Virus record (IMG/VR): IMGVR_UViG_3300033150_001293 | Strand: one strand, 5' to 3' | Origin: an uncultured virus (IMG/VR IMGVR_UViG_3300033150_001293) | Taxonomy: Duplodnaviria > Heunggongvirae > Uroviricota > Caudoviricetes | Length of the DNA stretch: 64,000 nucleotides | Shown: piece by piece, positions 13,172 through 45,107 of the stretch | Layout: each line of letters begins with the position of its first letter | Numbering within the stretch: the first letter of the stretch is position 1 | The notes under the pieces: generated by a model | The model's database searches: none | The model's input: only the letters and a program-made list of their open reading frames with translations | Told to the model about the DNA's origin: nothing | Position numbers and translations under genes: made by a program

Positions 13172-13285
13172 ATGCTCCCTATTATAGCAGCCTTGACGGC
13201 CGAGCGTCCATGGATTCCCGAAGGGAACCTAACTCCTACCCCCGCAACGATTTAGGGTTTCCGGCCGAAATTGCCCGGGAGAAGG

Positions 13286-14288: not shown

Positions 14289-14329
14289 TCGATGTACGCT
14301 CGCCACTACGAACTACGGGAGCTATACTA

Positions 14330-15397: not shown

Positions 15398-15450
15398 CAT
15401 TGGACCTGAGCAAGTACCGTATAATCCGCTAGGCAACAGGAGCCATCACA

Positions 15451-16560: not shown

Positions 16561-16578
16561 TCAACAGGAGCCATCACA

Positions 16579-17877: not shown

Positions 17878-17895
17878 TCAACAGGAGCCAATATA

Positions 17896-18711
17896 ATGTG
17901 CGAATTTCTATCCGGCATAGTTACGATGGAGCGGTACCCTCGTGTGCTCTGCGCCGACCTACGGCATCACGAGCGCACGGTGGAGGCGTTCGATCTCAAG
18001 CCGGAAACGTACCGGGAGTGGGAATGGGTCGAGGACGACGACGGAGCCAGCCTCACGGTGCGTGCCGCGCCCGGCGAGAATCCCAGCGTGCTGAAGTCGG
18101 CCATCCTGGCGAAATACCCGACGCGGGGAGACGCGCTGAGGACTTGCGTTGCTCAGGCGTTGGAAAAAAGCGGTTCGCTCTACCTTCGCGATTGCAAGCT
18201 GCCTGACGGTTTGACGCTGCCCGAGACGATAGATGGTTGGCTCGACCTTCATGGTTGCGTATTGCCTGCTAGTCTAACGCTACCCAAAACAGTTGGTGGC
18301 TGGCTCAACCTCGACGGCTGCATGCTACCCGCCGGAGTGACGTTACCCGAGTCGATCGGCGGCTGGCTTGACCTCAACAACTCCGTGCTACCCGACGGAC
18401 TAACGCTACCCAAGTTGGTAGGCGATTCGCTCGACCTTCGCGGCTGCAATCTACCTGCTAGTCTGACGCTACCCAAGACAGTTGGCAGTTCACTCTACCT
18501 TTGCGATTGCGAGCTACCCAACGGATTGACATTACCCAAGTTGGTAGGCGGTTCGCTCGACCTTCGCGGTTGCAAGCTACCTGCTGGCCTGACGCTACCC
18601 GAGTCGATCGGCGGTTCGCTCGACCTTCGTCGCTGCACGCTAGCTGAGGGTCTGATATTGGACCTGAGCAAATATAGTGCGGTCCGCGCTGCACGTTGGC
18701 GAAGGGTTTAA
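17896..18711 (+). CDS. LRR-like repeat protein 4
   Basis: paralogue with the shortest repeat tract. Confidence 0.9.
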   Translation: MCEFLSGIVTMERYPRVLCADLRHHERTVEAFDLKPETYREWEWVEDDDGASLTVRAAPGENPSVLKSAILAKYPTRGDALRTCVAQALEKSGSLYLRDCKLPDGLTLPETIDGWLDLHGCVLPASLTLPKTVGGWLNLDGCMLPAGVTLPESIGGWLDLNNSVLPDGLTLPKLVGDSLDLRGCNLPASLTLPKTVGSSLYLCDCELPNGLTLPKLVGGSLDLRGCKLPAGLTLPESIGGSLDLRRCTLAEGLILDLSKYSAVRAARWRRV

Positions 18712-20471: not shown

Positions 20472-20690
20472 GTGAGATACACGCTGTGGTTCCTGTCGTT
20501 GTTCATTGCCAGCATAGCTAGTTTCTGCGGCCTTATTTGCGCCTGGGCAGTAGCGGCCAACCTGGGCGGCTGGTGGTTGGTGGGAGCGTTGGCATGCCCG
20601 AACATTGCTATAATTGTCTTGTTGGGTCACATGCTGCAAGCCCGGCCGAATCGGCGTTGTCCAACGGGTTGCTCCCGTGACAACGGCTGA
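20472..20690 (+). CDS. small membrane protein
   Basis: two hydrophobic segments; stop lies inside the following repeat. Confidence 0.5.
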   Translation: MRYTLWFLSLFIASIASFCGLICAWAVAANLGGWWLVGALACPNIAIIVLLGHMLQARPNRRCPTGCSRDNG

Positions 20691-20712
20691 AATTCGAGAA
20701 GTGTGTTGCGAG
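20677..20712 (+). repeat. solitary full CRISPR repeat upstream of the exonuclease gene
   Basis: GTGACAACGGCTGAAATTCGAGAAGTGTGTTGCGAG. Confidence 0.95.
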
Positions 20713-23417: not shown

Positions 23418-24291
23418 ATGAGCAGATCGCAATGGGTCCGCGTCAGTCGACGCGAGCCTTGTCCGGTCTGTCATCCACAAGCCGGACTGGTGCCTTGTAA
23501 CTGGTCCTGAAGGATGTCGTACGGCCGTGATATGCGCCCGCGTCGAGAGCCCCAAGCGCTGCGGCGAGGCTGGCTGGCTCCACAAGCTGCGGGATGACTG
23601 GCGGAATTCGCCCCCGCCCAGACTCGATCCGAAGCCGGAGCGGCCAGAGCCGAAGCGGGACTTCGCGGCGTTCGCGGAGCTGTGCACGACACAGTTGCAC
23701 CGAGACGCCCTGGGGGCGTTTGCCGGGAAGATGGGGCTAAGCGTCGGCTCGCTCGTGCGGCTGGGGCTCGGCTGGTCGCTGGAACATAAGGCGTTCACGT
23801 TCCCAATGCGGCGGGGCTCCGACGGCAAGGTGGTGGGCATCCGGCTGCGTCTACGCAGCGGCCGGAAGCTGGCGGTCAAAGGCGGGAGGGAGGGGCTGTT
23901 TGTGCCGTCGGACACGCCGCGGACTGGCGAGCTGTACCTGCCGGAGGGGCCGACGGACACGGCGGCGCTGCTGGACATCGGCTGCGAGGCGGTAGGGCGG
24001 CCGAGTTGCAACGGCGGCATCCAACACATACTGTCGTTCATCGCGCGGTCGAAGTACGCCGGCATCTGCGTTGTGGCGGACGCGGACGCGCCGGGCCAGC
24101 AGTGGGCGAAGGTGTTGGCGGAAAAGCTGCTACCGTACGCCCCCCGGGTGTGGATCGTCACGCCGCCTGACGGACACAAGGACGTGAGAGACTGGGTGCG
24201 GGGGGGAGCGACAAAACGCAACATTGACGGCGCAGCCGTGCCGCAAGAAACTCGCAACACACTTCTTAGCACAAATGCATTGTACCATTAG
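23418..24291 (+). CDS. Zn-finger/TOPRIM primase-like protein with a +1 frameshift near 23475
   Basis: MSRSQWVRVSRREPCPVCH | HKPDWC; EGPTD, DADAPG, KDVRDW. Confidence 0.8.
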
Positions 24292-24307
24292 AGGCAGGAT
24301 GCGGCAA
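24251..24307 (-). ncRNA. promoter plus half-repeat unit antisense to the primase 3' end
   Basis: minus strand TTGCCG-17 bp-TACAAT-GCATTTGTGCTAA-GAAGTGTGTTGCGAG. Confidence 0.75.
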
Positions 24308-25519: not shown

Positions 25520-25963
25520 ATGGCCGAAAAAGCACCTGAAGAGCGTTTGTGGGGCTGCATAGTACAAATCATGCTGATGGCGTTTTTCATCTATATCATA
25601 GGCGTTCTTCTTGCGGCCCTGTTTAAGTCCGCGTCTATGCCGGACGTTACGCCGTCGTACAGGCCGCCTGCCACGCCGTCTTGGGACGACATGTATTCGT
25701 CGCCGGGGCCGTCGCGCAGCAGCGGTGCGACGACTGTCTCGACGTGTACTCTGGCCCCGTCGGCCTCGGCCTACAGGCAGGCCACCGACGCGGCGGCACA
25801 CGGCAACGGGCTCGGCGTGGCGGCGACCGGCACGGTGATCCTGGAGAGCGGCACGCGGGTCAGGGTGCTCGGCTCGGGCGGGTTCATGCTGAAGCGGGTG
25901 GCCGTGCTGAGCGGACCCTATGCCGGAAAGACGGGCGTGGTTGCGTCGGAAAAAATCCGCTGA
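25520..25963 (+). CDS. membrane-anchored protein with SH3-like C-terminus
   Basis: TM segment; GTRVRVL..RVAVLSGPYAGKTGVV. Confidence 0.6.
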   Translation: MAEKAPEERLWGCIVQIMLMAFFIYIIGVLLAALFKSASMPDVTPSYRPPATPSWDDMYSSPGPSRSSGATTVSTCTLAPSASAYRQATDAAAHGNGLGVAATGTVILESGTRVRVLGSGGFMLKRVAVLSGPYAGKTGVVASEKIR

Positions 25964-25982
25964 GATATGGTATAATAGAAAT

Positions 25983-26208
25983 CAACGGGGTCCTCGCAGC
26001 CCCAATGAGAGGCGAGAAGTACCATGACACCCAAACGGCAATCACGGCGCATCCGTCCCCGATCATGTGCAAGCATGACGGGTGACGGTCGCCGGCTGAG
26101 CGGGTCCGGGCAACTCTCGCTGAAGGCTCCTGAAACAGGCCGGATATGCCGTGAGCCCGGCCGACACACTTCGCCTGGTGCGGTGATTCATCGCCGCACC
26201 AGGTTTTT
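25983..26208 (+). ncRNA. predicted tracrRNA of the Cas12f-like system
   Basis: TGG-TATAAT at 25968-25976; anti-repeat CGACACACTTC at 26162-26172; CTCGCA at 25993-25998; terminator hairpin plus T5. Confidence 0.75.
26174..26208 (+). terminator. intrinsic terminator
   Basis: CCTGGTGCGGTGA-TTCA-TCGCCGCACCAGG-TTTTT. Confidence 0.85.
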
Positions 26209-26213
26209 ATTCT

Positions 26214-26382
26214 GGCTGAAATTCAAGAAGTGTGTTGCGAGGCACGGGGCGACCTGGACACGTCACACCTCGTGACGACGGCTGAAATCTGAGAAGTGTG
26301 TTGCGAGACCGAATCTCACCGTAGAGAAGAGCCTCTTTATAGGGTGGCGACAACGGCTGAAATCTGAGAAGTGTGTTGCGAG
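26214..26382 (+). CRISPR. CRISPR array B: 3 repeats (first 5'-truncated), 2 spacers
   Basis: repeats at 26214, 26272, 26347. Confidence 0.92.
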
Positions 26383-26417
26383 CGAGCAAACAAAAACGAA
26401 AGGGAAAGGAGAACGAC

Positions 26418-26960
26418 ATGGCGACTACAAGACAAGCGTTGTTGGAGCTGAAGAGGCTGGCGGCATCGGCCGCCGACAACCTGTACCGCCGCATCGAGCT
26501 GTCGGCGCAGGTGATGAGCGACCTGGACTGGATTGCCCGCGAGCACGGCGGTTCCGACTTGAAGGCCCAAGACACGTTGCAGGATCAGTTCTTCAGGGAC
26601 CTTGGCGGGTTCATCTCCCTCGGCAAGCTGATTGCGATGTTTCGCAACGTGCCGCAGGAGACGTGGGCCGAGCTGAAGTACGACGTGGCGGCCGTCGAAG
26701 TCGTCTACGACGACCAGGCCATCGAGAAGACGGAGAAGGGGACCAAGACCGCCTGGAAGCCCATTGCGGAGGAGAGGGGCGAAAAGATCGAACGCCTTCA
26801 GCGGCAGATGTCTCAGGTCAACGAGCTGGCCGATAAGCAGCGTTCGGAAATCGACGTGCTGCGGGCGAAGGTTGAAGAGCTGACCCGCGAGAACGAGCGT
26901 CTTCGGGGGCGCGTCGAGGAGCTTCAACGACTGCTCGATAGGCAGGTCGTGCAAGTGTGA
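26418..26960 (+). CDS. coiled-coil protein embedded between arrays B and C
   Basis: AAGGAG RBS; C-terminal heptads (LRAKVEELTRENERLRGRVEELQRLL). Confidence 0.8.
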   Translation: MATTRQALLELKRLAASAADNLYRRIELSAQVMSDLDWIAREHGGSDLKAQDTLQDQFFRDLGGFISLGKLIAMFRNVPQETWAELKYDVAAVEVVYDDQAIEKTEKGTKTAWKPIAEERGEKIERLQRQMSQVNELADKQRSEIDVLRAKVEELTRENERLRGRVEELQRLLDRQVVQV

Positions 26961-27875
26961 CGGGAAGTGTGTTGCGAGGGCGAGAACCGGCTTCAGCACG
27001 TGGTCCCCGCAAGAGGTGACAACGGCTGAAAGCGGAGAAGTGTGTTGTGAGGACGGGGCGATTGCGGGTTGTGACGACGGCTGAAATTGGAGAAGTGTGT
27101 TGCGAGCCGAGTCTGTCCCCGAGGGTGACAACGGCTGAAAATCGAGAAGTGTGTTGCGAGACACGGCGCCCGCGCCCGTCTCGACGCCGCGAGCGACGTG
27201 ACAATGGCTGAAAATCGAGAAGTGTGTTGCGAGCACCCGGCTCACGTCCACGCCGCCCGGGCCGGCCCGGTGACAATGGCTGAAATCCGAGAAGTGTGTT
27301 GTGAGAAGGTCACCCACCCTCCGAGTGGTGACAACGGCTGAAATCGGAGAAGTGTGTTGCGAGACCTCCCAGCGCCGCCCGCCGGGGTCGGACAGCTCGC
27401 CCGTGACAACGGCTGAAAATCGAGAAGTGTGTTGCGAGCCGAATAGGTCGGTAAGCTTGGTTGGGTGGTGCTCTCGTGACGATGGCTGAAATTCGAGAAG
27501 TGTGTTGCGAGCAGACCCCAATCGTGCAAGACCGCGACACTAAGGCACGTGACGACGGCTAAAATCTGAGAAGTGTGTTGCGAGCCGACGAAGAATCCCG
27601 CCGTCGCGAGGGAGATGGCCGTGACAACGGCTGAAATCTGAGAAGTGTGTTGCGAGCTGCCATCGTTACCCTTTCAGTCTGGTTATGTTACCCGTGACGA
27701 CGGCTGAAATCCGAGAAGTGTGTTGCGAGGCTTCGGAGTAGGCCAGCCGCCCGTCCAGGTCCGGGGTGATGACGGCTGAAAGTCGAGAAGTGTGTTGCGA
27801 GTGTCCATGATGCAATCGCAGGGGACGCTGCTGGAGGCGCTGACGACGGCTGAAATCGGAGAAGTGTGTAACGAG
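26957..27875 (+). CRISPR. CRISPR array C: 14 repeats (first internally deleted, last degenerate), 13 spacers of 18-39 bp
   Basis: repeats at 26957, 27016, 27071, 27125, 27198, 27270, 27328, 27403, 27476, 27549, 27621, 27694, 27766, 27840. Confidence 0.97.
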
Positions 27876-27900
27876 CAAACAAGCGAGGGAGCGAGGCAAA

Positions 27901-29184
27901 ATGGCCATCGGAATTCTAGAAGTCAAGCTGGGGCGTCCGATCCAAATGCCAACGAAGCGGTTCCACCAGCTACTCAGGCAGGCCCGCCGCGATTGCTGCA
28001 AAGCACGCAACGCGGCCATGCTCCACTGGTATGTCTGGCGGCGAGAGCACGCGGATTGGGAGCCGGGAAAACCATACGAGGCGCCGAAAGCCAAGATTAT
28101 GCGAACTCGCAAACCGGCAGGCGAAGGGAAGAAGCCACCGAAGGACTCGCCGATTGCCCCTCGCCTATTTCTTAGCCGCGAACTCTACCACGCGGCAACC
28201 GCGGCGGCGCGGAACCTGTCGGCGTCGCTCGCCTCGTCGTGTGTACAGGAGGTGATCGCCCGACTCAAGGCCAACACCCCTTACGACCACGACGGCGAAG
28301 CGAGGTGGGTATGGCAAGCAATCCTTGCGTCCGAAGTCAATCTGCCCACCTGGCGCGGCGGGCGCATCCCGATGCCCAAGCGGTGCTCGTCGCTCGGATA
28401 CGACGGGGCCGTCAGCCAACCGTCGGCTGACGTGGCGAGGGCCTGCAAAAGCGGGTGCGTTTTGAAGTTTCAACTGCTGTCTAGGCTGAGCGGCTATAGG
28501 ACGCTATCGCCCATCGTCCGACTGGACGCCGCCGACCTGACGCGGGGCAACCGGCGATTGCTGAGGCGTCTGGCGTCTGGCGAGGTACGTCTGGCAGACA
28601 GCCAGATCGTCGAGAAAAAGGGCAAGTGGTTCGCCCAATTCTGCTACGAGGTGGCGGCCAACGCGATCGGCCTGCCAACGGATCAGGTGTTGACGCTACT
28701 GCCGGCGGAGCCGGACGACAAGTGGCCGTTCGCGCTCGCATGGACCAAGGAGGATGGGAATGGGCGGGTGTGGAAGATTGGCAACGGGCGGCCGCTCGTG
28801 GCCGAATACCGCCGGGTAGTAGCCCGGCGCCGGGCGATCCGCTACCGCTACCAGGACGGGACGGGCAGCGGGCACGGGCGCCAGCGGTGGTACAAGGCGA
28901 TTCGTCCGATGGCTCACGCCGTGCGGGACATGCAGAACCGCTTTGAGAAGCAGACGATTGCGGACATCATCAAGCTGGCGATTCGTGAGCGGTGCGGCAC
29001 GGTCCTGTACCGCGAGCCGACGATGCCGGTCCGCAACTATTCGTGGTTTGCGGCCAAGGACGTGCCGTTTGACTGGACGAGTTTCGAGGCGAGGCTGCGG
29101 TTCAAGACGGAGACGCGCGGCCTGGCCTACGAGAAGGCGCGTATCGGGATGAAGGAATGGCGTCCAAGAAAAATCGCAAACTGA
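27901..29184 (+). CDS. cas12f: Cas12f-like type V effector, predicted nuclease-dead
   Basis: collinear with AsCas12f1 as recalled: ILASEVNLPTWR/ILRGDMSIPSYK, SQIVEKKGKWF/SQIIHDDRKNKWY, GHGRQR/GHGRDKR, AIRERCGTV/AIKEGCGTI; RuvC-I is VLTLLPA (no D), RuvC-II is VLYREPT, Zn finger and RuvC-III absent; flanked by arrays. Confidence 0.85.
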   Translation: MAIGILEVKLGRPIQMPTKRFHQLLRQARRDCCKARNAAMLHWYVWRREHADWEPGKPYEAPKAKIMRTRKPAGEGKKPPKDSPIAPRLFLSRELYHAATAAARNLSASLASSCVQEVIARLKANTPYDHDGEARWVWQAILASEVNLPTWRGGRIPMPKRCSSLGYDGAVSQPSADVARACKSGCVLKFQLLSRLSGYRTLSPIVRLDAADLTRGNRRLLRRLASGEVRLADSQIVEKKGKWFAQFCYEVAANAIGLPTDQVLTLLPAEPDDKWPFALAWTKEDGNGRVWKIGNGRPLVAEYRRVVARRRAIRYRYQDGTGSGHGRQRWYKAIRPMAHAVRDMQNRFEKQTIADIIKLAIRERCGTVLYREPTMPVRNYSWFAAKDVPFDWTSFEARLRFKTETRGLAYEKARIGMKEWRPRKIAN

Positions 29185-29477
29185 TCCTCGACTGCGAGAT
29201 ATGCGGGGAGCCGGTAGTGCTGTCGCCGTCGCGGTACGTCGCGCTCGTGCGGGCTGGCGAGCGGCCGCGGTGCCGGAAGAACGGGTGCGAGAGGTTGTGC
29301 GGTGCGAAAAGTGCGGGGACCTCTCGCGGCACGCAAGTACTTGCCGGGGCGAGGGTTTCGCCGCTGGTAGTGCAATGGCCCCACACGAAGAGGGGCAACA
29401 AGAATGGAGCCCTCGCAAAGCTGGCCGTAAAGCGAGACGGCGCATGGCGTTACGAGGGGTGCCGTGACGATGGCTGA
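29157..29477 (+). CDS. small Cys-rich Zn-finger protein overlapping the cas12f stop
   Basis: CEICG...CRKNGC. Confidence 0.55.
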   Translation: MASKKNRKLILDCEICGEPVVLSPSRYVALVRAGERPRCRKNGCERLCGAKSAGTSRGTQVLAGARVSPLVVQWPHTKRGNKNGALAKLAVKRDGAWRYEGCRDDG

Positions 29478-31145
29478 AATCGGAGAAGTGTGTTGCGAGA
29501 CACGAGTTCAGGCGATGTATATACTGGTATGAGCAAGTGACGATGGCTGAAATCGGAGAAGTGTGTTGCGAGGGTCCGACGCCTCCGCAATCTGCTTGGC
29601 GTAGCCGAGTGACAACGGCTGAAATCGGAGAAGTGTGTTGCGAGTGCGAGCGTCCTCCACCCCGAGGCTCGGGTACCTCCCGTGACGACGGCTGAAATCG
29701 GAGAAGTGTGTTGCGAGGCACGTCTCTGGCCTCGCCAATCGCCGCGTTCTTGCCGTGACGATGGCTGAAAATCGAGAAGTGTGTTGCGAGAGAACCGTCA
29801 AGTCCGGGTCGCCACCGTGCGACGACGGCTGAAAGCGGAGAAGTGTGTTGCGAGGCGAATACGAGAGACGTGGGCGCCGACCGTTGGCCGCGTGATGACG
29901 GCTGAAAGCGGAGAAGTGTGTTGCGAGCTGGTAGCGGCAGGCGTGTATCGCCCGAAAGACGGGCGTGACGCGGCTGAAATCCAAGAAGTGTGTTGCGAGT
30001 AGAGTCTGCATAGGCTCAGCGTGTGACAACGGCTGAAAGTCAAGAAGTGTGTTGCGAGCCTGCCGATCGCCCATTGCGTCTCACTCCTTTCGGGTCGTGA
30101 CGATGGCTAAAATCCGAGAAGTGTGTTGCGAGAAGGTCGCCCACCCTCCGAGTGGTGACGACGGCTGAAATTCGAGAAGTGTGTTGCGAGAATGAAGAGG
30201 GAAGGCAGGGGTTACGATCCCATCCGGCGTGATGATGGCTGAAATCTGAGAAGTGTGTTGCGAGGGGTGGACGTGCCGGCGGCGACGATCACGGTGGACG
30301 GCGTGACGATGGCTGAAATCGGAGAAGTGTGTTGCGAGTCGAGTAGCTGCCCGGGGGCTTGTAGGCACCGGCCCGCGTGACGATGGCTGAAAATCGAGAA
30401 GTGTGTTGCGAGAACCACGCAATCAGGGAGCTGGCCTGGGAGGGTGTCAAGTGACGACGGCTGAAATCGGAGAAGTGTGTTGCGAGGCCGAAAACCGAAG
30501 ACGATCAGCGTGCGATAGCTGGTCGTGACGATGGCTGAAATCTGAGAAGTGTGTTGCGAGAGCACGTACGGGCTCACACCCGGCGGTTGACTCCAGCGGT
30601 GACGACGGCTGAAATCTGAGAAGTGTGTTGCGAGCCCTCCCGTGTGACGAGCCGGATGACCTATACGCAGGTGACGACGGCTGAAAATCAAGAAGTGTGT
30701 TGCGAGTCGCCAACCCGGGGATACGTTCAACGGACAGCTACGGACGTGACGATGGCTGAAATTCGAGAAGTGTGTTGCGAGTTGATCGAGAAGATGTTGG
30801 TGGCTGGCCAGCCGGCGTGTGACGATGGCTGAAATTCGAGAAGTGTGTTGCGAGTCGCGGGCCTTCAGGAGGGCAGTTAGCCGTGATTGCAGTGATGACG
30901 GCTGAAATCTGAGAAGTGTGTTGCGAGGCGTCGATCAGCGCCAGCGGGGCCGGCCCGTGGAATGCGTGACGATGGCTGAAATCTGAGAAGTGTGTTGCGA
31001 GAAGCCAAGAGGCAATGCGAGCACGGCGAATGGGGGCGTGACAACGGCTGAAAGCGGAGAAGTGTGTTGCGAGGCTGCCCAATGTGCCCTTGTATTTGGC
31101 GAGAGAACGCGTGCCAACGGCTGAATCCAAGAAGTGTGTCGCGAG
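29464..31145 (+). CRISPR. CRISPR array D: 24 repeats, 23 spacers of 22-39 bp
   Basis: 36-bp repeats from 29464 to a degenerate terminal copy at 31111-31145. Confidence 0.98.
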
Positions 31146-31825: not shown

Positions 31826-32512
31826 ATGAAATGTTCGGCCGTAGTCCTATCCTTCAATCGCGTGCCCAACCTGGGCCGTATCGTCGAGAACCTCCGGCGG
31901 CACGACTGGATAGACGACATCGTGATATGGCACCAAGGCGAGCGGCTGCCGCCCGACTTCGAAGTGTGTTGCGAGCCTATCTGGTATGGCGTCCGCGAAA
32001 TCCACGCGCACAACCGCCTGCGCATGGGGCGATTCGACGCGATGGACCATTGCGCCCACGACGCGGTGCTCGTCCAGGACGACGACACGCTGCCCCGCAA
32101 CCTCGACGCGGCGTGGCAAGCCTGGCGCGAGGAGCAGTCCCGGATCGTTGCCCTGCTCGACCGTGGGCACCTGATGACGGACCGCTGGCGGCACTGGGGC
32201 GATTGCCATGAGGTGCTGCTCGGCTGGGGCGCAATCCTCGATCGGCGGTGGCGGAACGTGTTCAGGCTATGGGAGCACAGCTACGGCGTTGACGAGTTGC
32301 TAGAGCGGAAGGCCGACCGTATCTTCTCAATCCTCCAGCGGCGGCACCACACCGTCCTGCTGGCTGACTACGAGAAGCTACCCGGGGCGGACTCGAACGA
32401 CGCGGCGTGGAAGCAGCCGGACCATGACGCGACGACGAGAGAGGCGAGAGAGCGGTGCCTGAACGGCATATGTGGAATGGGATTGCAGCGCCACGAGTAC
32501 CGGATACGATAA
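31826..32512 (+). CDS. GT-A fold glycosyltransferase
   Basis: SFNRVPNL, IVIW, VQDDD; exact half-repeat at 31961-31975 inside the CDS. Confidence 0.75.
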   Translation: MKCSAVVLSFNRVPNLGRIVENLRRHDWIDDIVIWHQGERLPPDFEVCCEPIWYGVREIHAHNRLRMGRFDAMDHCAHDAVLVQDDDTLPRNLDAAWQAWREEQSRIVALLDRGHLMTDRWRHWGDCHEVLLGWGAILDRRWRNVFRLWEHSYGVDELLERKADRIFSILQRRHHTVLLADYEKLPGADSNDAAWKQPDHDATTREARERCLNGICGMGLQRHEYRIR

Positions 32513-33237
32513 TGCATTTGCCCCTGTACCCCGTGCCGAGCGACACTTGGCAGGACGAATACGAGGCGTGTTTGGCGGACCCGTACCTGCAAAAGAAATA
32601 CGACCGGGAGAAGAGCATCCGGGAGCACGTCGACTACTTCGGCCGATACTGCCCGGAACTCGTGCCCGTAACCAAACCGCCCGGGCTGGTCGTCGACATC
32701 GGCCCCGGCTTCGGCGTTGGGCTAGAGGTCGCCCGCCAGCTCGGATACGACACGATCGGCGTCGAGTCCCCGTCCGGCGATGGCGGGATGGGGGACGCCT
32801 ACCACCGGCTGAGTCGCCTACTGCATGCGCGGCAGAAGCTAGCCGTAACCTACGTCGGCTGGCAGGAGTGGGTTGAGGCGGCCGAGATTCCCGAGGACAG
32901 CGTGTTTCTGTTCAACTCGCGCGGATCGTGGGAGCAGTGCTACGCGGAACTTCTGAGCGGCCCGCCTCACGACCGGCACCACGACTGCAAACAGCAGACG
33001 TGGGATCAGATCGTGACGTGCGTTATCCGGTGGCGGCGGGCGTTCGCGTTCATGGCGTCCCGGCTCGTGCCTGGCGGGCTCGTGCTGATCCACGCCAACG
33101 GGACCGGCTCGTCGACCAGCGACCGATGGTACAGCGCGGCGATAGCCGCCGCTGGGGAGTTTGCCGGACTCGAATTGGCGCTGAAGGAGGGCAATAAATT
33201 GCACAAGTGGAAGAAACCACAACTGATGGAGACATAG
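32512..33237 (+). CDS. SAM-dependent methyltransferase
   Basis: VVDIGPGFG, IGVE, LVPGG. Confidence 0.75.
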   Translation: MHLPLYPVPSDTWQDEYEACLADPYLQKKYDREKSIREHVDYFGRYCPELVPVTKPPGLVVDIGPGFGVGLEVARQLGYDTIGVESPSGDGGMGDAYHRLSRLLHARQKLAVTYVGWQEWVEAAEIPEDSVFLFNSRGSWEQCYAELLSGPPHDRHHDCKQQTWDQIVTCVIRWRRAFAFMASRLVPGGLVLIHANGTGSSTSDRWYSAAIAAAGEFAGLELALKEGNKLHKWKKPQLMET

Positions 33238-33240
33238 CCG

Positions 33241-33825
33241 ATGCCAGGCTCGCAACACACTTCAACTTCCCATCATAGCGGAAAGACGGTTGCCGACAAG
33301 TCATCCGAGGGAAACGGCGAAGAAATCGACCGGCTGAAATCGGAAATCGCCGCACACAAGGAAAGCCTGAAAACATGCCGCAAGACGATTGCGTCGCTCG
33401 AACAGTCTCTGGAAACGGCCAACGCTGCGATTTGGCGAATCGTAGATGAGGTCTGGTCGGTGCGAACTTGCAAGGAAAACGTCGAGCTGGGCGAGACAGT
33501 CGAGGCATTGGTTGAAAACCACAAAGCGTATCTCGCGTTGATCAGGTCGAGGAGGCAAGAGGCTGCAAGAATATGCAAGGAAGCACGCGAGATTCAATCC
33601 GCGTTGCGGTTCGTCGGGCGTGCTGCCAGTTCAGGGTCGAGCGGTATGATGTTCGGATCAGCAGAGCACTTGGTACTCAGCATCGACGCAATCATGCGCC
33701 AGGCGTGTCGAGATATTGACGGTTTGATTGCCAGTTCGACTGGCGTCGTAAACGGCAGCCAAGATCGCTTGATGCGGGACGCGGTGGCAGAACTCCCGCA
33801 ACACCACTCGCAACACACTTCATAA
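33241..33825 (+). CDS. coiled-coil hypothetical protein bracketed by half-repeats
   Basis: starts and ends with repeat-encoded SQHTS; true start uncertain. Confidence 0.45.
   Translation: MPGSQHTSTSHHSGKTVADKSSEGNGEEIDRLKSEIAAHKESLKTCRKTIASLEQSLETANAAIWRIVDEVWSVRTCKENVELGETVEALVENHKAYLALIRSRRQEAARICKEAREIQSALRFVGRAASSGSSGMMFGSAEHLVLSIDAIMRQACRDIDGLIASSTGVVNGSQDRLMRDAVAELPQHHSQHTS
33249..33300 (-). ncRNA. promoter plus half-repeat unit
   Basis: TTGTCG...TATGAT-GGGAAGTT-GAAGTGTGTTGCGAG; promoter sequence shared with 36942-37000. Confidence 0.65.
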
Positions 33826-33859
33826 CTGTATTATACCATGTCCTCAGCGGACGCAGCAA
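33807..33859 (-). ncRNA. promoter plus half-repeat unit
   Basis: TTGCTG-18 bp-TATAAT-ACAGTTAT-GAAGTGTGTTGCGAG. Confidence 0.75.
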
Positions 33860-33884
33860 GGAGTCTTGACATGAAGGACGCGGG

Positions 33885-34799
33885 ATGCGGGCAATAATAA
33901 TATACGACGTGGACGGTTTCGCGTACCACCGGCGGGCGGTAGCATTGAAAAAGTACGCGCCGCCCGACGCGGACGTGCGGCTTGTCAGGACGCCCGACTA
34001 CTGCGGCCCCGGCGACGCGGACGTAGTGGTGCTTTTGGACTATATCTGTCTGGGCATGGTTCAGGGCATGACGCCGGCCCGAGTGCCGCTCGTTTGCACA
34101 TTTTCGGCGGACCACCGGCGGCGGGAGAAACAGTGGCGGCACACCTGCGAGCACGCCGACTGGGTGATAGCGTTGAGCCGGGAGCGGTACGAGGCGGAGC
34201 CGCGATTCGGCAACACCTGCTGCATTGCCAACGGCGTGGACCTCGACGATTTTGGTGCAGACGTACCGATCGAGGGCCGGCCAGACAAGGCGCTGTGGAT
34301 CGGCCAGGACGGGCGAGGGGACAACAAGGGGCTGATCTCCGTCCTGTCGCCGCTGCGCAAGCTGGCCGAGCGGAGCGGGTTCGCCTGCGACTTCCGGGCG
34401 GTGGGCCCTCGCGGATTTTCTACGGATCGCCTGCGGAGTTGGTATAATAGCGGGAGTTACATCGTGTGCGCTAGCCGCTCGGAGGCGACGGCAAACACGG
34501 TGATGGAGGCAGCCGCTTGCGGCTGCGTGCCGGTGAGCACGCCGGTTGGTACCCTGACGGATTGGGGCCAGGATGGCGAGAACTGCGTGCTCGTGAAGGA
34601 TCGGTCGCCGGAGGCGTTCCTGAAAGGACTGCAACGGGCGAAGGACGCACGCCTCCGGCTGGCCGCCGGCACGATGGAGGCCGTGGCGAGGTATGACTAC
34701 CGCCGCGTGGCGGAGCTGTACTGGGAGGATGTAATTCGGCCAATCGCCGAAGGGCGCCGGCCGGAACAATTCTGCTACCTCTCGCAACACACTTCCTGA
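33885..34799 (+). CDS. GT-B (GT4-like) glycosyltransferase
   Basis: ANGVD, KG, SRSEATANTVMEAAACG. Confidence 0.85.
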   Translation: MRAIIIYDVDGFAYHRRAVALKKYAPPDADVRLVRTPDYCGPGDADVVVLLDYICLGMVQGMTPARVPLVCTFSADHRRREKQWRHTCEHADWVIALSRERYEAEPRFGNTCCIANGVDLDDFGADVPIEGRPDKALWIGQDGRGDNKGLISVLSPLRKLAERSGFACDFRAVGPRGFSTDRLRSWYNSGSYIVCASRSEATANTVMEAAACGCVPVSTPVGTLTDWGQDGENCVLVKDRSPEAFLKGLQRAKDARLRLAAGTMEAVARYDYRRVAELYWEDVIRPIAEGRRPEQFCYLSQHTS

Positions 34800-34938
34800 C
34801 TATATTATACTATATCCACCGAGGAAATTTTGTAGGAGAAAGAGCCGTGGAGCCAGAATTGAGTTCGGAAGCCTGAAACCACCTTAAGAACTCGGCCGTT
34901 AAGGCTGCTATAATGGGGAGTATGAAGTGTGTTGCGAG
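34781..34938. ncRNA. divergent pair of TATAAT plus half-repeat units
   Basis: 15-mers at 34781-34795 (-) and 34924-34938 (+); the + promoter resembles the array A leader (CGGCCGTYAAGGCTGCTATAATRGGGAGYATGAAG). Confidence 0.7.
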
Positions 34939-35220
34939 AGTAAAGACAAGACCTCGGACGCAACCACAGTGATAAGCGGGTGCGCCTTGTTGGCGTGGCG
35001 AGTGTTCGTAGTGTTGCCTCTGTGGTATGTGTTGCTGGCGTCGCTGCTTTTGGCTACAGATGCCGAAGGGTGGCAATGGGTTCTGTACATCCTGTATGTT
35101 CCCGCGGGGGTATTCGGCTCCATAATGGTGTATGGATTCAATCTCCTACGCAAGGCAAATAGCATAAGCCCTTCCGAGAAGTGTATTGCGAACGAGTGAG
35201 CGGGCGAAAGGAGAAGCGGT

Positions 35221-35637
35221 ATGTGGTCAATCGTGGTATGGTTTGTCGTCCCGGGCATTGTAATGGGGCTTGGCCTGTTCATGGCATGGCGGGCTAACAA
35301 AATGCCTATCAAATGCACAGGTCTTGTAATGCTGGTCCTCATAGGGATGGCTCTGGGGACCTGCTTAGCTATTCTGCCGTTGTTTCGCATTGAAATACAC
35401 GCCCAAATCGCACGATTTCATTCCGTTCGGCAATCCGTGGAAGCTGCGCGTAACGGCAACACCGCCGAAGATATCGAGCGTGCCGCCATGTTGGACAAAA
35501 TCGTCGAGCGGGCCGCCCTGTCGCACAAAACCGTCGAGGCCAACGAATGGCTGGCACGATCTCGCTACTACGCGAGTCGATGGTATCTGGACGTATTCTG
35601 GCCTGACGAGGTGCTGATGTTGGAACCGATACGGTGA
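35221..35637 (+). CDS. membrane protein
   Basis: two TM segments; AAGGAG RBS after a degenerate half-repeat (35178-35192). Confidence 0.6.
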   Translation: MWSIVVWFVVPGIVMGLGLFMAWRANKMPIKCTGLVMLVLIGMALGTCLAILPLFRIEIHAQIARFHSVRQSVEAARNGNTAEDIERAAMLDKIVERAALSHKTVEANEWLARSRYYASRWYLDVFWPDEVLMLEPIR

Positions 35638-36338
35638 CTGCTGCTATCCCCAAGGTAACGGCCGTCCTGCTTAACTGGAGGCGGCCGGACAACATCCCGC
35701 TGATCCTGGAACGGCTGGCCGAGCAGCCGTTTGTCGATGAAATAGTGCTGTGGAACAACGACGACAGCATTTGCGAGCACAAGGACCACTCGGACTGGTT
35801 CTGGGCGACGGGCGACGTAAGGCTGCGTCTTCTGTTTCGGTTCGCCAACCTCGGCACTTGGGCGAGATTCCTCGCGTGCCGAGAGGCGTCTTGCGACTGG
35901 ATTATCACGCAGGACGACGACTGCCTCTGCGACAACTGGCCCGAACTCTACCGCGAGGCTCTGGCCCATCCCGACGCGATTACGGCCAACATGCACCGCA
36001 ACGAGGACGACACCCACGACGGGCTGATCTACGTCGACGGCAAGTGCTGGGATGTATGGCTTGGCTGGGGCTCGATGTTCCGACGGGAGCTGATAGGAGA
36101 CATATTCGAGCGGTACGTGGCCAAGTGGGGCGAGGACGAGTGCCTGCTACGGGACGCGGACCGAGTGTTTGCGGTGGCACTGGGGCGTAGGCACCACGCG
36201 ATCCAAGCCAGAACCGAAAACTTGCCGGGGATCGACGGGCCGATGGCGATCCACAAGGATGGGAGGAAACACCTCACATGGCTTGCGCGGCGGCGAGGAG
36301 TCCAGTTGGCGGAGAAATGCGAAAGGGAGGGACGATGA
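35634..36338 (+). CDS. GT-A fold glycosyltransferase (paralogue of 31826)
   Basis: LNWRRPDNI, IVLWNN, TQDDD, LGWG, RDADR. Confidence 0.8.
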   Translation: MTAAIPKVTAVLLNWRRPDNIPLILERLAEQPFVDEIVLWNNDDSICEHKDHSDWFWATGDVRLRLLFRFANLGTWARFLACREASCDWIITQDDDCLCDNWPELYREALAHPDAITANMHRNEDDTHDGLIYVDGKCWDVWLGWGSMFRRELIGDIFERYVAKWGEDECLLRDADRVFAVALGRRHHAIQARTENLPGIDGPMAIHKDGRKHLTWLARRRGVQLAEKCEREGR

Positions 36339-36532
36339 GCAGATCTGATTTGCGGTACGCCGTGATTGTTGCGGTGACTCATGCGCTCTACAGCGGAGAT
36401 ACATGGAGAGCGTCAGCAGTAGAGTCAGGACCGGTATATCGTCGTGCTGCCGAAATCGCGGTAAAGCAGGCTGACGCAATCCTGGCATGTCTTGAGTCAG
36501 AAGACCAAGAAACCGCTGAATAGGATGAAAAA

Positions 36533-36736
36533 ATGAGTGAGTGGAAAAGGTATCGGAAACGAGGCACAACCGAGATGCGCCCATACGTGCCGGGCGAAGA
36601 TCTGTCGGACATATCCGTCAACAAGGAAGACACGCCAGAGGAGGGCGGCATGATTGCCCGCAACTCGGACAACCACGAGGACCAATGGTACGTCGCCAAG
36701 GCGTATTTTGCAGCCCATTACGAGGCGGCGCAATGA
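36533..36736 (+). CDS. small hypothetical protein
   Basis: MSEWKRYRKRGTTEMRPYVPGE..DQWYVAKAYF. Confidence 0.6.
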   Translation: MSEWKRYRKRGTTEMRPYVPGEDLSDISVNKEDTPEEGGMIARNSDNHEDQWYVAKAYFAAHYEAAQ

Positions 36737-36941
36737 GCCGCACCATCATCGCCGGCAACGGCCACAAGATCGGCTACGTCCATATTCCTTGCACCGGCGG
36801 GCGGAGCGTAATGCACGCACTGGGGCTTTTGCCGAGCCACGCAACCGCGGCGGAATTGAGGCGTCGGCACCCGGACCTGACGCATGTCGTTGCCATAGTC
36901 CGCTCCCCGTTTACGCTGCTCGTCTCGTGGTACAATCGGAT
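36733..36941 (+). pseudogene. truncated sulfotransferase-family gene
   Basis: YVHIPCTGGRS and VRSPFTLLVSWY motifs; similarity stops at the half-repeat at 36942. Confidence 0.6.
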
Positions 36942-37081
36942 CTCGCAACACACTTCAGCATCTTATCATAGCGAAAAAGACGGTCGAGGACAAGTCATCC
37001 GAGAAGTGTGTTGCGAGCGGGCGAGCTCGTCGAAGGTCACGCGGCGTGGCAACGGCTAAAATTCGAGAAATGTGTTGCGAG
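36942..37081. CRISPR. minus-strand promoter/half-repeat unit back-to-back with a plus-strand mini-array (half-repeat, 28-bp spacer, degenerate repeat)
   Basis: 36942-36956 (-), 37003-37017 (+), 37046-37081 (+). Confidence 0.8.
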
Positions 37082-37096
37082 CGAGTGAGCGAGCGA

Positions 37097-37717
37097 ATGA
37101 GGGCGTGGGGCCAACTACAAGGACGTTATCCGTGGCCGGATCGGCAGCCAAGCGACCAAGGGGTCAAGCGGCCGTTTGGCTGGCTGCACAACAAGACGCA
37201 AGCGGCCCTGCGCCAGCATCTTGGCGAACACACGCGATACGTCGTGGAGTTGGGGACGTGGCTTGGCAGGTCGGCCCGGTTCATTTTGTCGTGCGCGCCG
37301 AACGCGAAAATAGTCTGCGTCGATCACTGGCAGGGCTCGCCGGAGTTGGGCGAGGACCACGGGCACCTGTTTGGCGAACCGGTGTATCAGGCGTTTCTAC
37401 ACCACAACTGGGACCTGAGAGAGCGGATCGTGGCCGTACAGGACCGAACCGAGGCCGGCATAACCGAGGTCGTGATGGCCGGCCTGACGCCTGACCTGGT
37501 GTACATCGACGCCGCGCACGACGCGGAGAGCGTGCGGCTAGACGTATACGCATCAGCGATGGCGTTTCCCGACGCGATATTGGTCGGGGACGACTGGGAT
37601 GTGGACGCCGATCACTACGGCGTGGCGTCCGGCGTAGCGGATGGGTTGAGCCAGGCGTTCGCCAGCTACGACCTACGCAACAACGGCAAAGCGTGGTGGG
37701 CGAAAAGAGTGCCATGA
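37097..37717 (+). CDS. class I methyltransferase (Methyltransf_24-like)
   Basis: VELGTWLGRS, VDHW, YIDAAHD, GDDW. Confidence 0.85.
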   Translation: MRAWGQLQGRYPWPDRQPSDQGVKRPFGWLHNKTQAALRQHLGEHTRYVVELGTWLGRSARFILSCAPNAKIVCVDHWQGSPELGEDHGHLFGEPVYQAFLHHNWDLRERIVAVQDRTEAGITEVVMAGLTPDLVYIDAAHDAESVRLDVYASAMAFPDAILVGDDWDVDADHYGVASGVADGLSQAFASYDLRNNGKAWWAKRVP

Positions 37718-38487
37718 GAACCGATCTTCCCCCGTGTTACCGCTGCCACAAACAGCCCTGCAAGTGCAAGGACGGGGTGGCATTGTACCACGGCGACTGC
37801 CTTGACGTGATGCTCGCGATAGAGCCGGAGAGCGTGGACTTAGTGTTAACGGACCCGCCGTACGGCATATCACAAATAGGGGTATCGCACACACGAAGAC
37901 CAGGCAAGGGAAGTCGTAATTTCGATTTCTTCAACAACGATACTCCGCAAGAGGCCGTATCATTGATGTTGAAGGCGGCGGGGTTGTGCAATCGCCTTGT
38001 AACGGAGAAAGCGTCAGCCTACTGGTGGGTTGGCCATTACGGATTCGGTCCGCTCATCAGCTGGTATGAAGGGCAGTCGTGGAAAACGCGATTCCTCGTG
38101 TGGAACAAGGCCGCTCCCTGCCCACCTCCACCGGGTAGCGGATGGCCGAGTGCTGCGGAACTATGCGTCTACGCTTGGCGGCTTGGTCGGACATGGACAC
38201 ACGACGGGAAGAACTATCCACAGTCAAACGTAATAACCGCCGATAGCTATAGGCATGGTATGCCGGGGAAGGTGAACCATCCCACACAAAAGCCACTGAC
38301 GGTCATTCGGCCGTTAATTCAGGCGTCTTCGTGCAAAGGACATACTATTCTCGATCCGTTTGCCGGCAGCGGCACAACCGGCCTCGCCTGCAAGGAACTG
38401 GGGCGAAAAGCCATTTTGATAGAGATCGAAGAGAAATACTGCGAAATCGCCGCACGGCGGCTTGAGCAGGGAATGCTGTTTGGCTAA
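37714..38487 (+). CDS. N4-C/N6-A DNA methyltransferase (beta class)
   Basis: TDPPY, HPTQKP, LDPFAGSGTT. Confidence 0.92.
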   Translation: MRTDLPPCYRCHKQPCKCKDGVALYHGDCLDVMLAIEPESVDLVLTDPPYGISQIGVSHTRRPGKGSRNFDFFNNDTPQEAVSLMLKAAGLCNRLVTEKASAYWWVGHYGFGPLISWYEGQSWKTRFLVWNKAAPCPPPPGSGWPSAAELCVYAWRLGRTWTHDGKNYPQSNVITADSYRHGMPGKVNHPTQKPLTVIRPLIQASSCKGHTILDPFAGSGTTGLACKELGRKAILIEIEEKYCEIAARRLEQGMLFG

Positions 38488-38500
38488 AGAGGCGTATCCT

Positions 38501-39166
38501 GTGTTCGTAACCGATTCGCACCTGTTCATTGGGATGCACCGCACGGGCACCACCTGGGTCTGCCGCGTGCTGGAGGCCGCGTTCGGCCCCAGCCAGATGC
38601 CCGTGCAGCACACGCCGATATCGGACGTGCCCGCCGAGTTCAAAGCCGGCCGCACTGTCGTCGGCGTCGTGTGCAATCCGCTGGAGTGGTATGTCTCCCG
38701 CTGGGCGTATTCGTACCAGACCACGAAGGACAAGTCGAAGCGGCTGGGCTTCTGCGATTATCTGGACCGGCACATGGGCAACCCGCAAGGGCCGATTGGC
38801 AAGGCGTGCGAAGACTTCCCCCAAACCGACATGCGGATCGGGGCGTACAGCTATCTCTACGTGTGCTACTTCTTCGAGCGGGCCCGCGAGTTGCTGCCGG
38901 GACTGGGCCCGGACCGGCTGCAAGAGTTGCACGACGAGGGGTGCTCAGTTAACCTGATGATGCGAAGGGACAACCTGACCCGCGACCTGATCGAGGTCTT
39001 CGGCGAGAGGGTGCGGCCACACCTTGGCGAGTGGCGCAACGCCACGATCCACGATCCGTGGCAGGACTATTACCGCGACGCCCGGGGCAAATGGTGGGAG
39101 CGCAGAATCCTTAGTCTCGACGCGGCAATTTTTCGGCGGTGGGGTATTGAAACCATAAGAGGATAG
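38501..39166 (+). CDS. sulfotransferase-family protein
   Basis: MHRTGTT, NPLEWYVS, WQDYY. Confidence 0.65.
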   Translation: MFVTDSHLFIGMHRTGTTWVCRVLEAAFGPSQMPVQHTPISDVPAEFKAGRTVVGVVCNPLEWYVSRWAYSYQTTKDKSKRLGFCDYLDRHMGNPQGPIGKACEDFPQTDMRIGAYSYLYVCYFFERARELLPGLGPDRLQELHDEGCSVNLMMRRDNLTRDLIEVFGERVRPHLGEWRNATIHDPWQDYYRDARGKWWERRILSLDAAIFRRWGIETIRG

Positions 39167-39348
39167 CATGGCTAAAATTACGATTACACTTACAGATACG
39201 CGAGAAGGTGAAATTTGCATTCAAGTGGTCACCACTCCGCCGGTGAAACCAGGCGACAAAAGTACGCCTGCCCAAAAAATAGCGGCAGCATGCCTGGCAG
39301 CAATCGCAGTGCGACACGATAGCGGGAGCCCAAACTAGGGGAAGTCGG

Positions 39349-40386: not shown

Positions 40387-40566
40387 CGGGTGGCCACCGC
40401 GTGCCGATGCCAAAGTACGACCGGCACATGGACTTTGCGGCCCCGCAATCGCGGTAGCTCGCCGTAGACTTCCTCGGGGAGCAGGAGCGGCTCGACTACG
40501 TGTCCCGGCAGAAGCCGAAGACGAGCCGCTTTATGGTATAATGCAGTCATAGAAGTGTGTTGCGAG
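40341..40566. repeat. perfect 37-bp inverted repeat made of two outward-facing TATAAT plus half-repeat units
   Basis: TTTATGGTATAATGCAGTCATAGAAGTGTGTTGCGAG at 40530-40566 and its reverse complement at 40341-40377. Confidence 0.92.
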
Positions 40567-40635
40567 GTAAACAATATGCCAACATGAGGCACACCAACCT
40601 CGGACAGAAACAAGATCAGGGAGGTGATGCCTCGC

Positions 40636-43827: not shown

Positions 43828-43840
43828 CTGTATTGTACCG
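43804..43840 (-). ncRNA. TACAAT plus half-repeat unit antisense to the GT 3' end
   Basis: GGTACAATACAGTTATGCTGAGAAGTGTGTTGCAAG. Confidence 0.7.
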
Positions 43841-44135
43841 TATCCTTGGAGGGAAGGATAATGTTTACTCGCTGGACAGCCCTATTGTGGCGGTGGTTCC
43901 GTATGCAGATTACATTTCGCTGGCCGATTCGCTCCCCAGTTTCGATCGACCTGCGAAATTTCATCTACATGTGCCGGCGGCTTCGGCGGCGGACTAACTG
44001 GTATCGGTGCGTCGACTGCGGGCGGTGGGCGCACACGGACCTCGGCGTTGGCGGTTGCCACTGGGCCGAGCGGGTCGACGGCAAGGCAAGGATCGTCGGC
44101 TGGTGCGAAAAATGTGGCCGAAAGAGGACGATAAC

Positions 44136-45083: not shown

Positions 45084-45105
45084 AAGTCAAGAAGTGTGTT
45101 GCGAG
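45070..45105 (+). repeat. solitary full repeat between convergent GT genes
   Basis: GTGACAACGGCTGAAAGTCAAGAAGTGTGTTGCGAG. Confidence 0.95.
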
Positions 45106-45107
45106 GC

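Follow-up and report, generated by a model that had tools for sequence, protein, structure and literature searches.

We analysed a 64,000-nt stretch of DNA (the window) from an uncultured tailed phage, IMG/VR record IMGVR_UViG_3300033150_001293, and identified in it a locus centred on a truncated protein related to Cas12f, the effector of type V-F CRISPR systems. The 427-aa open reading frame (ORF) sits between an upstream array of 14 units and a downstream array of 24 repeats, with smaller arrays of 3 and 5 elsewhere; its position and all repeat counts agree with the original prediction, which had been made from the sequence alone. The gene is accompanied by a trans-activating CRISPR RNA (tracrRNA), two conserved partner genes and copies of the terminal part of the repeat, here called the handle, which are dispersed through the window. 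The identity and architecture of this Cas12f-like system are well supported. The features of the locus, in window coordinates, are as follows.

25968-25976, plus strand: extended -10 promoter TGGTATAAT of the tracrRNA, read from the sequence; the same type of box precedes many handle units
25984-26212, plus strand: tracrRNA of ~225 nt (fold, terminator, homologs, covariation)
26206-26382, plus strand: mini-array of 3 repeats, the last abutting the 5' untranslated region (5'UTR) of the partner gene
26418-26960, plus strand: partner protein of 180 aa, helical domain at the N-terminus, long coiled coil at the C-terminus (homologs, AlphaFold2)
26943-27875, plus strand: upstream array of 14 units, the last, degenerate repeat abutting the 5'UTR of the Cas12f-like gene
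27901-29184, plus strand: truncated Cas12f-like gene, 427 aa (P0001; homology, fold, family alignment)
29157-29477, plus strand: small Zn-ribbon ORF of 106 aa, CxxC...CxxxxC, in the -1 frame (conservation in relatives)
29464-31145, plus strand: downstream array of 24 repeats, the last abutting a DUF1064 resolvase gene
12877-13192, minus strand: array of 5 units, with a GCTATAAT promoter, a handle-only unit at the predicted transcription start site and 4 full repeats

A Pfam search of the 427-aa protein returned no family. By phmmer against PDB sequences it matched AsCas12f (E = 1.8e-9, residues 211-408) and, weakly, a Bacteroidota ‘nuclease-deactivated Cas12f’ (E = 0.17); a profile of 40 family sequences matched OsCas12f (E = 2.4e-17), and the PADLOC models Cas12u3 (1.3e-13) and Cas12f (3.4e-12) both recognised the protein. 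The AlphaFold2 model (predicted local distance difference test, pLDDT, 89.0; predicted template modelling score, pTM, 0.80) had AsCas12f as its best structural match in Foldseek (8j1j_A, E = 6.3e-21, TM score 0.63) and was also paired with the sigmaE-type dCas12f 9n9c (E = 2.7e-14). Judged by this model, the protein keeps the WED-REC-RuvC fold of Cas12f, and the relationship that had been proposed is upheld at the level of both sequence and predicted structure.

The claim that the catalytic residues are lost held in part. Both substitutions named in the original prediction, VLTLLPA and GTVLYREPT, are present. The profile alignment sets Leu or Thr against the RuvC-I Asp of OsCas12f (GVDMG), the window residue being L267 in VLTLLPA, and the 40-sequence family alignment, all members of which stop at the same point, contains no conserved acidic residue at RuvC-I. 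The RuvC-II Glu, however, which had also been counted as lost, may be retained as E372, a near-invariant residue in the family motif CGTxxYREP that aligns either on the RuvC-II Glu or one residue from it. As had been noted, the protein ends early: the alignment breaks off ~66 residues short of the OsCas12f C-terminus, leaving the Zn finger and RuvC-III without a counterpart, and the Zn-finger (TNB) domain is absent from the effector polypeptide. Thus, the RuvC D-E-D triad is not intact, with the RuvC-I Asp lost, the RuvC-III segment absent and E372 alone possibly remaining, and the protein is a member of the Cas12f lineage without two of the three RuvC catalytic positions.

At E <= 1e-3, an exhaustive HMMER search retrieved 259 clusters (50% identity), 116 of them at <= 1e-30; most are 400-500 aa long and align through to the end of the query. 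The truncation is seen throughout these clusters and is therefore not an artefact. The 49 closest relatives (40-77% identical, the query's own cluster aside) are unnamed or ‘hypothetical’ metagenomic proteins. No protein relatives were found among 185,579 representative genomes, and the locus had no match in a 50,697-record phage collection; a 17-mer of the handle was present, among viral contigs, solely in L005, a fragment of this phage.

The presence of a tracrRNA, also part of the original prediction, was corroborated by its terminator, fold, homologs and complementarity to the repeat. In the region 25963-26206, the -10 box is followed by a structured element of ~225 nt (z = -3.9) and then by a terminator consisting of a 14-bp hairpin (stem 26173-26204) and a T-run. 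Homologs were detected by nhmmer on the strand of the gene in 18 of 28 loci, and RNAalifold predicted 27 pairs for a 13-sequence alignment, 13 of them with compensatory changes. Two segments of the tracrRNA pair with the repeat. Near the 3' end, a CCG-N9-10 block, which in the window holds the anti-repeat ACACACTTC (26164-26172), is a perfect 9-10 nt complement of the repeat of its own locus in all nine loci that hold both the block and a repeat. Across these loci, the anti-repeat covaries with the repeat through many compensatory changes (repeat/anti-repeat: window, GAAGTGTGT/ACACACTTC; L001, GAGAGCATGT/ACATGCTCTC; L002, ACAGGAATGA/TCATTCCTGT; L007, GGAAACGTAT/ATACGTTTCC). The second segment lies in 5' hairpin 1, whose loop carries an invariant CTCGCA (25993-25998), the exact complement of TGCGAG, the invariant end of the repeat; L001 is the only locus with a TGCAAG repeat end and also the only one with a CTTGCA loop. 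From these two pairing segments, the last 14-16 nt of the repeat form the complete two-segment handle of the CRISPR RNA (crRNA), its 5' part being complementary to the 9-10 nt anti-repeat and its TGCGAG to the hairpin-1 loop.

The arrays, which flank the Cas12f-like gene in relatives as well, contain ~42 spacers. The upstream array consists of a handle-only unit (26943-26978) and 13 full 36-nt repeats (27016-27875); the minus-strand array opens with a promoter and a handle, which fits a mature crRNA with its 5' end at the handle. The repeats are heterogeneous at positions 6, 8 and 17-19, and several arrays hold duplicated spacers. No match to cas1, cas2, cas4, transposase or sigma families was obtained for 69 ORFs of the window, 60 of relatives and 12 of L051 (G001), a record near-identical to the window phage that supplies an extra 12.8 kb and brings the phage to a total of 76.8 kb; for the window, this agrees with the absence of such genes noted at the outset. 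The lone sigma-like match was a sub-threshold Sigma70_r4_2-type helix-turn-helix (HTH) in a small-terminase-like protein (23.1 bits against a cut-off of 25.7). Given the varied repeats, the duplicated spacers and the lack of adaptation genes, the arrays seem to evolve slowly and not to be in active adaptation.

Both large arrays contain one copy of a spacer that is unusually short (22 nt), at 27306-27327 and 30133-30154 (21/22 identical). In related phages, identical spacers are found two to three times within one array (L009, 3267-3521; L010, 3948-4199; L025, 2294/3629; L002, 11705/11849), which points to recombination or duplication rather than acquisition by Cas1-Cas2. One spacer is common to the window (27364-27402) and L017 (2428-2455), with 21/23 identical positions by BLAST and 23/26 in an extension made by eye, although the Cas12f-like proteins of the two are only ~59% identical. 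The reverse strand of this common spacer encodes DPGGRRWE.

Two partner genes, neither of which figured in the original prediction, accompany the effector. The 180-aa coiled-coil partner, present in L001 and L002, has 57 homologs, 22 of them with a longest contig equal in length to that of a relative of the Cas12f-like protein. Its AlphaFold2 model (pLDDT 89) gave no Foldseek match in the PDB at E <= 0.001, and no recognisable family, sigma or HTH domain was found; its Atlas matches were all <= 0.82, the noise level, and the rotavirus NSP3 and DUF3102 clusters among them are leads only. All 23 loci in which the 3' end of the Cas12f-like gene is present also have the Zn-ribbon ORF, with Cys13, Cys16, Cys39 and Cys44 invariant in the alignment. 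The ATG of this ORF is embedded in two invariant codons of the Cas12f-like gene, GAA TGG, and its frame is -1 in 13/13 loci, with an overlap of 19-55 nt that contains A-rich runs, and its last codons extend into the first repeat of the downstream array. Neither the sequence nor the profile of the Zn-ribbon protein matched Cas12 or TnpB in the PDB, the Atlas yielded nothing, and the protein has no conserved Asp in a RuvC-III-like motif. The ORF is a candidate for a split-off TNB Zn-finger domain.

Counted over the whole window with up to 2 mismatches allowed, the 14-nt handle AAGTGTGTTGCGAG has 76 copies where 0.33 would be expected (at most 2 in any of 100 shuffles); 46 copies belong to full repeats and 30 are handle-only. 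Likeness among the copies ends exactly at the repeat/spacer boundary. A -10-like hexamer (>=4/6 matches, with A2 and T6 required) ends 3-16 nt upstream of 20 of the 30 handle-only copies, compared with 2.8 +/- 1.5 at random positions (maximum 7). A perfect TATAAT stands 9-10 nt ahead of six copies, and four are preceded at 14 nt by TACAAT or TACCAT, in some cases together with a -35 box (for example TTGCCG-17-TACAAT at 24307-24279). The promoters in front of most solitary copies are sigma70-like. By their placement, two classes of units can be distinguished. In the sense-leader class, at least 13 genes have a handle or full repeat ahead of the start codon, at a distance of 1-46 nt; among them are the Cas12f-like gene and its partner, a methyltransferase gene and those for the exonuclease and the resolvase. 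In the antisense class, at least 13 units point back into a gene, 8 of them with the handle <=50 nt from the stop codon of that gene. Intrinsic terminators are not enriched after handle units (2/23 against 33/400 at random positions). These promoter-linked handles, like E372, the overlap of the Zn-ribbon ORF, the heterogeneous repeats, the duplicated spacers and the spacer common to divergent phages, were absent from the original prediction. Representative units are the following.

24251-24307, minus strand: promoter and handle, TTGCCG-17-TACAAT-14-handle, antisense inside the 3' end of the primase-like gene
33807-33850, minus strand: promoter and handle, TGGTATAAT-9-handle, antisense at the 3' end of ORF 33241-33825
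34781-34825, minus strand: promoter and handle, TATAAT-9-handle, antisense at the 3' end of glycosyltransferase gene 33885-34799
34895-34938, plus strand: sense promoter and handle, GCTATAAT-10-handle
40341-40566, both strands: divergent pair of identical promoter and handle units, TGGTATAAT-10-handle; unit 40341(-) is antisense to gene 39349-40386 and unit 40531(+) is the leader of gene 40624-41631
43804-43860, minus strand: promoter and handle, antisense at the 3' end of glycosyltransferase gene 42811-43827
57530-57573, plus strand: promoter and handle, TATAGT-6-handle, directed into minus-strand gene 57574-57993 at its 3' end
20677-20712, plus strand: full repeat standing alone, immediately ahead of the start of the exonuclease gene (20703)
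37046-37081, plus strand: solitary full repeat 15 nt upstream of a methyltransferase gene start

Relatives show handle dispersal on a smaller scale: L011 and L027 have a promoter with a handle, L025 and L001 have handles ahead of genes, and in L008, L022 and L009 the terminal repeat directly precedes the ATG of the Cas12f-like gene. L002 has a 15-repeat array and no solitary handle in 21 kb, so that dispersal is not a family-wide requirement. The additional part of the phage in L051 contributes 3 further handle copies; at 2534-2591 (-) of this record, two tandem handle-only copies 44 nt apart stand directly upstream of a Cro/CI-type HTH gene (2164-2472). Sense handle copies without a promoter also occur inside glycosyltransferase-type ORFs, at 31940-31975 and 39543-39578, where they are translated as EVCCE. 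In L025, a solitary handle precedes a gene (6877-7758) with a weak match to the Acb2/Tad1 hairpin domain (24.3 bits, cut-off 27), whose product is a possible anti-defence sponge.

Among the sequences searched, only one window spacer, 27234-27269, had a strong match, and this lies within the phage itself:

61728-61755, plus strand: imperfect self-protospacer of spacer 27234-27269, 5' flank CC

Spacer nt 3-20 are exact at 61730-61747, and 24/26 positions agree over nt 3-28 (to 61755); the site is in a 204-nt gap between two minus-strand late structural genes. A pattern derived from the spacer common to the window and L017 was run on 185,579 genomes and gave 6 matches, in genes for an AAA_25 ATPase, methyltransferases, a TetR protein and others. 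Only the one in L032, in the AAA_25 gene of a Planctomycetaceae metagenome-assembled genome (MAG), extends the pattern match, to 26/26 from spacer nt 1, and is a candidate protospacer. The other window spacers, compared with 5 MAGs found by the spacer pattern, had no matches other than at the sites selected by the pattern. Partial matches to 2 spacers (23/39 and 23/36) lie in the terminase gene of the phage itself; we treat them as possibly due to chance because an apparent enrichment of spacer matches in the phage vanished under a control with real 37-mers. Derivation of the spacers from relatives of this phage was rejected on the same grounds: the enrichment was seen over mononucleotide shuffles and vanished with real GC-rich 37-mers, the self-match of unit 36982 being excluded from the latter comparison and not from the former.

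In all four candidate targets, CC stands directly 5' of spacer nt 1, a weak hint of a 5'-CC protospacer-adjacent motif (PAM), weak since two of the four may be chance matches. All four are antisense to genes, yet the spacer set shows no coding-strand bias, as expected for targeting of DNA rather than mRNA. Targeting of mRNA was rejected by a codon-model test that found no strand bias (16 vs 21 in the window, 56 vs 57 in relatives), with a strand classifier that was 83% correct on controls.

The window is part of a tailed phage, in agreement with the phage origin originally proposed: it encodes a tape-measure protein, a head-tail adaptor, RecT, exonuclease VIII, an SNF2-type helicase and a primase-like protein, and also DNA methyltransferases, the DUF1064 resolvase and many clustered glycosyltransferases. 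In L002, L010 and L027, a phage integrase adjoins the Cas12f-like module, which there heads the early recombination genes.

We interpret the locus, with moderate confidence, as a phage-borne, type V-F-derived module for RNA-guided DNA binding that has lost DNA cleavage. The non-cutting mode of action is inferred from the loss of catalytic residues and from the existence of relatives that only bind, namely Cas12m, TldR and dCas12f. According to this proposal, the ~42 array spacers would be made into crRNAs of the form handle plus guide, and a ribonucleoprotein, probably including the coiled-coil partner and the small Zn-ribbon protein, would bind complementary DNA beside a PAM and block or modulate transcription or replication instead of cutting. 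The targets would include further mobile elements in the host, along with one or more sites in the late operon of the phage itself. With low confidence, we further suggest that the phage has put the complete handle at the predicted 5' end of ~20 promoter-driven transcripts, and before several in-operon genes, so that many phage mRNAs and antisense RNAs from gene ends could be loaded as additional guides or bound by the complex, which would tie the RNA-guided system into the phage's own gene-expression programme.

Several observations weigh against this interpretation. E372 may be a retained RuvC-II Glu, and the Zn-ribbon protein, acting in trans or fused by frameshifting, could restore part of the C-terminus, although such restoration would leave the RuvC-I Asp, which is replaced by nothing, still missing. 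Heterogeneous repeats and spacer duplicates within arrays are not typical of an immune array in active adaptation. Of the 36 window spacers tested, 35 had no convincing target, and the spacer set scored 23.9 bits against the phage's own 76.8 kb, compared with 23.6 +/- 0.35 for real 37-mers from unrelated GC-rich genomes. The match in L032 is derived from the pattern, with just 3 extra nt in agreement, the 5 other matches lie in unrelated genes, and no other window spacer matches this MAG. PAM-proximal guide seeds of 10-14 nt show no enrichment in other parts of the window, so that partial targets in trans, in the style of crlRNAs, are not supported. That ~40 guides silence host or competitor DNA, as the original prediction had it, is thus a conjecture; one strong match, to the phage itself, and one external candidate were found.

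The dispersed handles admit a different reading, in which the Cas12f-like protein and the tracrRNA act as a regulator at the RNA level by binding the handle on phage mRNAs and antisense RNAs, with DNA targeting secondary or absent. In-operon full repeats would then be processing sites, and the bound 5' end would set the stability or translation of the mRNA. The placement of handles and repeats just ahead of start codons in the window, including those of the Cas12f-like gene and its partner, and the corresponding terminal repeats and handles in five relatives (L008, L022, L009, L025 and L001) argue for such a role, as does the scarcity of intrinsic terminators after solitary units. However, it leaves the ~42 diverse spacers, the spacer common to divergent phages and the self-match at 61730 unexplained, and L002 carries its array without a single solitary handle. 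We consider an RNA-level regulator unlikely, if the best of the alternatives.

A slightly more doubtful extension of DNA binding would make phage transcription itself the source of guides. The RNA from every promoter and handle unit would be loaded by the Cas12f-like protein with its tracrRNA and would place roadblocks, insulators or RNA-end clamps at gene boundaries; through the arrays, competitor elements would come within reach of the same machinery. If true, such self-templated guides would provide programmable delimiting and timing of transcription units in a genome almost devoid of intrinsic terminators.

We regard as improbable that the module serves RNA-guided activation of transcription or antitermination, with the coiled-coil partner linking the DNA-bound Cas12f-like protein to the host RNA polymerase in a sigmaE-like role. 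The strictly conserved partner beside a truncated Cas12f-like gene parallels the dCas12f-rpoE operons (PMC13472631), the module stands at the head of the early operon near integrase and lysogeny genes in L002, L010 and L027, and the model resembles the sigmaE-type structure 9n9c. However, the partner lacks a sigma, HTH or other recognisable domain, no sigma gene was found, and the tracrRNA and arrays are kept, unlike in sigmaE systems.

Cas12f acts as a dimer, an asymmetric homodimer on one guide RNA, and a non-cutting protein could serve as a dominant-negative partner that, together with the tracrRNA and with handle RNAs as Racr-like decoys, titrates or poisons a type V-F system of the host. 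Promoter-driven solitary repeat units in phages are a hallmark of RNA anti-CRISPRs (PMC10651486; 10.1101/2024.10.29.618823). Decoys, though, need neither 42 distinct long spacers, nor a covarying tracrRNA, nor two conserved accessory proteins, and no host system with this repeat was found by the 17-mer scan of viral contigs or the protein search of representative genomes, which makes anti-CRISPR mimicry decidedly improbable. That the system is still a nuclease, its C-terminus supplied by the Zn-ribbon ORF in trans or through -1 frameshifting, is least probable of all: the conserved -1-frame overlap with its A-rich runs in 13/13 loci and the near-invariant E372 speak for it, but the RuvC-I Asp position is Leu or Thr family-wide, and the Zn-ribbon protein has neither a RuvC-III-like conserved Asp nor sequence similarity to solved Cas12 or TnpB structures.

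Other parts of the phage were annotated alongside the locus. Rfam and tRNA scans of the window gave no match. At 14250-18700 lie 4 tandem paralogous genes composed of 63-nt (21-aa) repeats with weak LRR_1 matches; their 300-nt flanks recur at spacings of 1121, 1128 and 1317 nt, and the phage thus carries a large leucine-rich-repeat family. The region 31826-47103 contains ~10 glycosyltransferase and methyltransferase genes (GT1, GT2, GT64, Methyltransf_24, N6_N4 MTase) and may be a DNA- or surface-glycan modification island; it also holds most of the antisense handle units. A 447-aa protein encoded at 7194-8534 (-) combines a trypsin-like peptidase domain with collagen triple-helix repeats, and a 1048-aa ORF at 3048-6191 of L051 joins portal, Mu-F-like and intein-splicing domains.

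Type V systems that are encoded by phages and lack adaptation genes have a precedent in Cas-phi (Cas12j). Among known systems, the phage family resembles type V-F Cas12f (AsCas12f, OsCas12f; PDB 8j12, 9nzq) in its fold, its best sequence and structure matches and its miniature size, as well as in the dual tracrRNA:crRNA, the repeat-derived part 5' of the guide and the flanking arrays. It differs in lacking the RuvC-I Asp, the Zn-finger/RuvC-III segment and cas1/2/4, in being phage-borne, and in having two accessory genes, heterogeneous repeats and a handle dispersed behind promoters.

With the Bacteroidota dCas12f of the dCas12f-sigmaE systems (PMC13472631; PDB 9n9c), the family shares descent from Cas12f, a C-terminal truncation that removes part of RuvC and an expected RNA-guided DNA binding without cleavage, in addition to the match of the model to 9n9c. 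Its sequence match to the Bacteroidota protein is far weaker than that to active AsCas12f (E = 0.17 vs 1.8e-9), it has other partners in place of rpoE or an HTH protein, and it resides in a phage rather than a chromosome. The dCas12f-sigmaE systems are reported to use single chimeric guide RNAs, without a tracrRNA and usually without an array (PMC13472631), whereas the phage system keeps both. The report also mentions a distinct dCas12f cluster near CRISPR arrays, and overlap of this cluster with the phage family is possible.

Cas12r of the Thermus Lalka phages (bioRxiv 10.64898/2026.04.20.719267) is likewise a phage-encoded compact Cas12 with an array and without adaptation genes, and a role in conflicts between mobile elements has been proposed. 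Cas12r is described as RuvC-active, 564 aa long and not in need of a tracrRNA; the family considered here lacks two of the three RuvC catalytic positions and appears to depend on a tracrRNA. Cas12m (PMC10442227) and TldR (10.1101/2023.11.30.569447) are also of the TnpB/Cas12 lineage and engaged in RNA-guided binding and transcriptional interference, TldR being phage-encoded as well. They belong to other clades, Cas12m using a crRNA only and TldR an omega-RNA-like single guide, and the parts consulted describe for them neither phage arrays of this size nor dispersed handles. Racr (PMC10651486) and viral crlRNAs (10.1101/2024.10.29.618823) provide the parallel of promoter-driven single repeat-derived units scattered in a phage genome. 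These RNAs hijack the Cas effector of the host, whereas the window phage encodes its own effector and tracrRNA; moreover, the window units overlap starts and ends of the phage's own genes, and the seed test found no partial-match targets in the window.

In the literature searched in full text, the sections retrieved contain no inactivated Cas12f that is carried by a phage, depends on a tracrRNA and is combined with such partners or with handles linked to promoters. Natural non-cutting derivatives of Cas12 and TnpB, such as TldR, dCas12f-sigmaE and Cas12m, are a rich source of RNA-guided regulators. To these, the family described here, which is spread across metagenomes and entirely unannotated, would add a phage-borne, tracrRNA-dependent branch with two conserved partners. 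If functional, the tagging of transcripts with the handle would be a new coupling of a virus transcription programme to an RNA-guided protein, and the 427-aa protein itself, a compact and apparently naturally non-cutting DNA binder, might find use as a tool of the CRISPR interference (CRISPRi) type.

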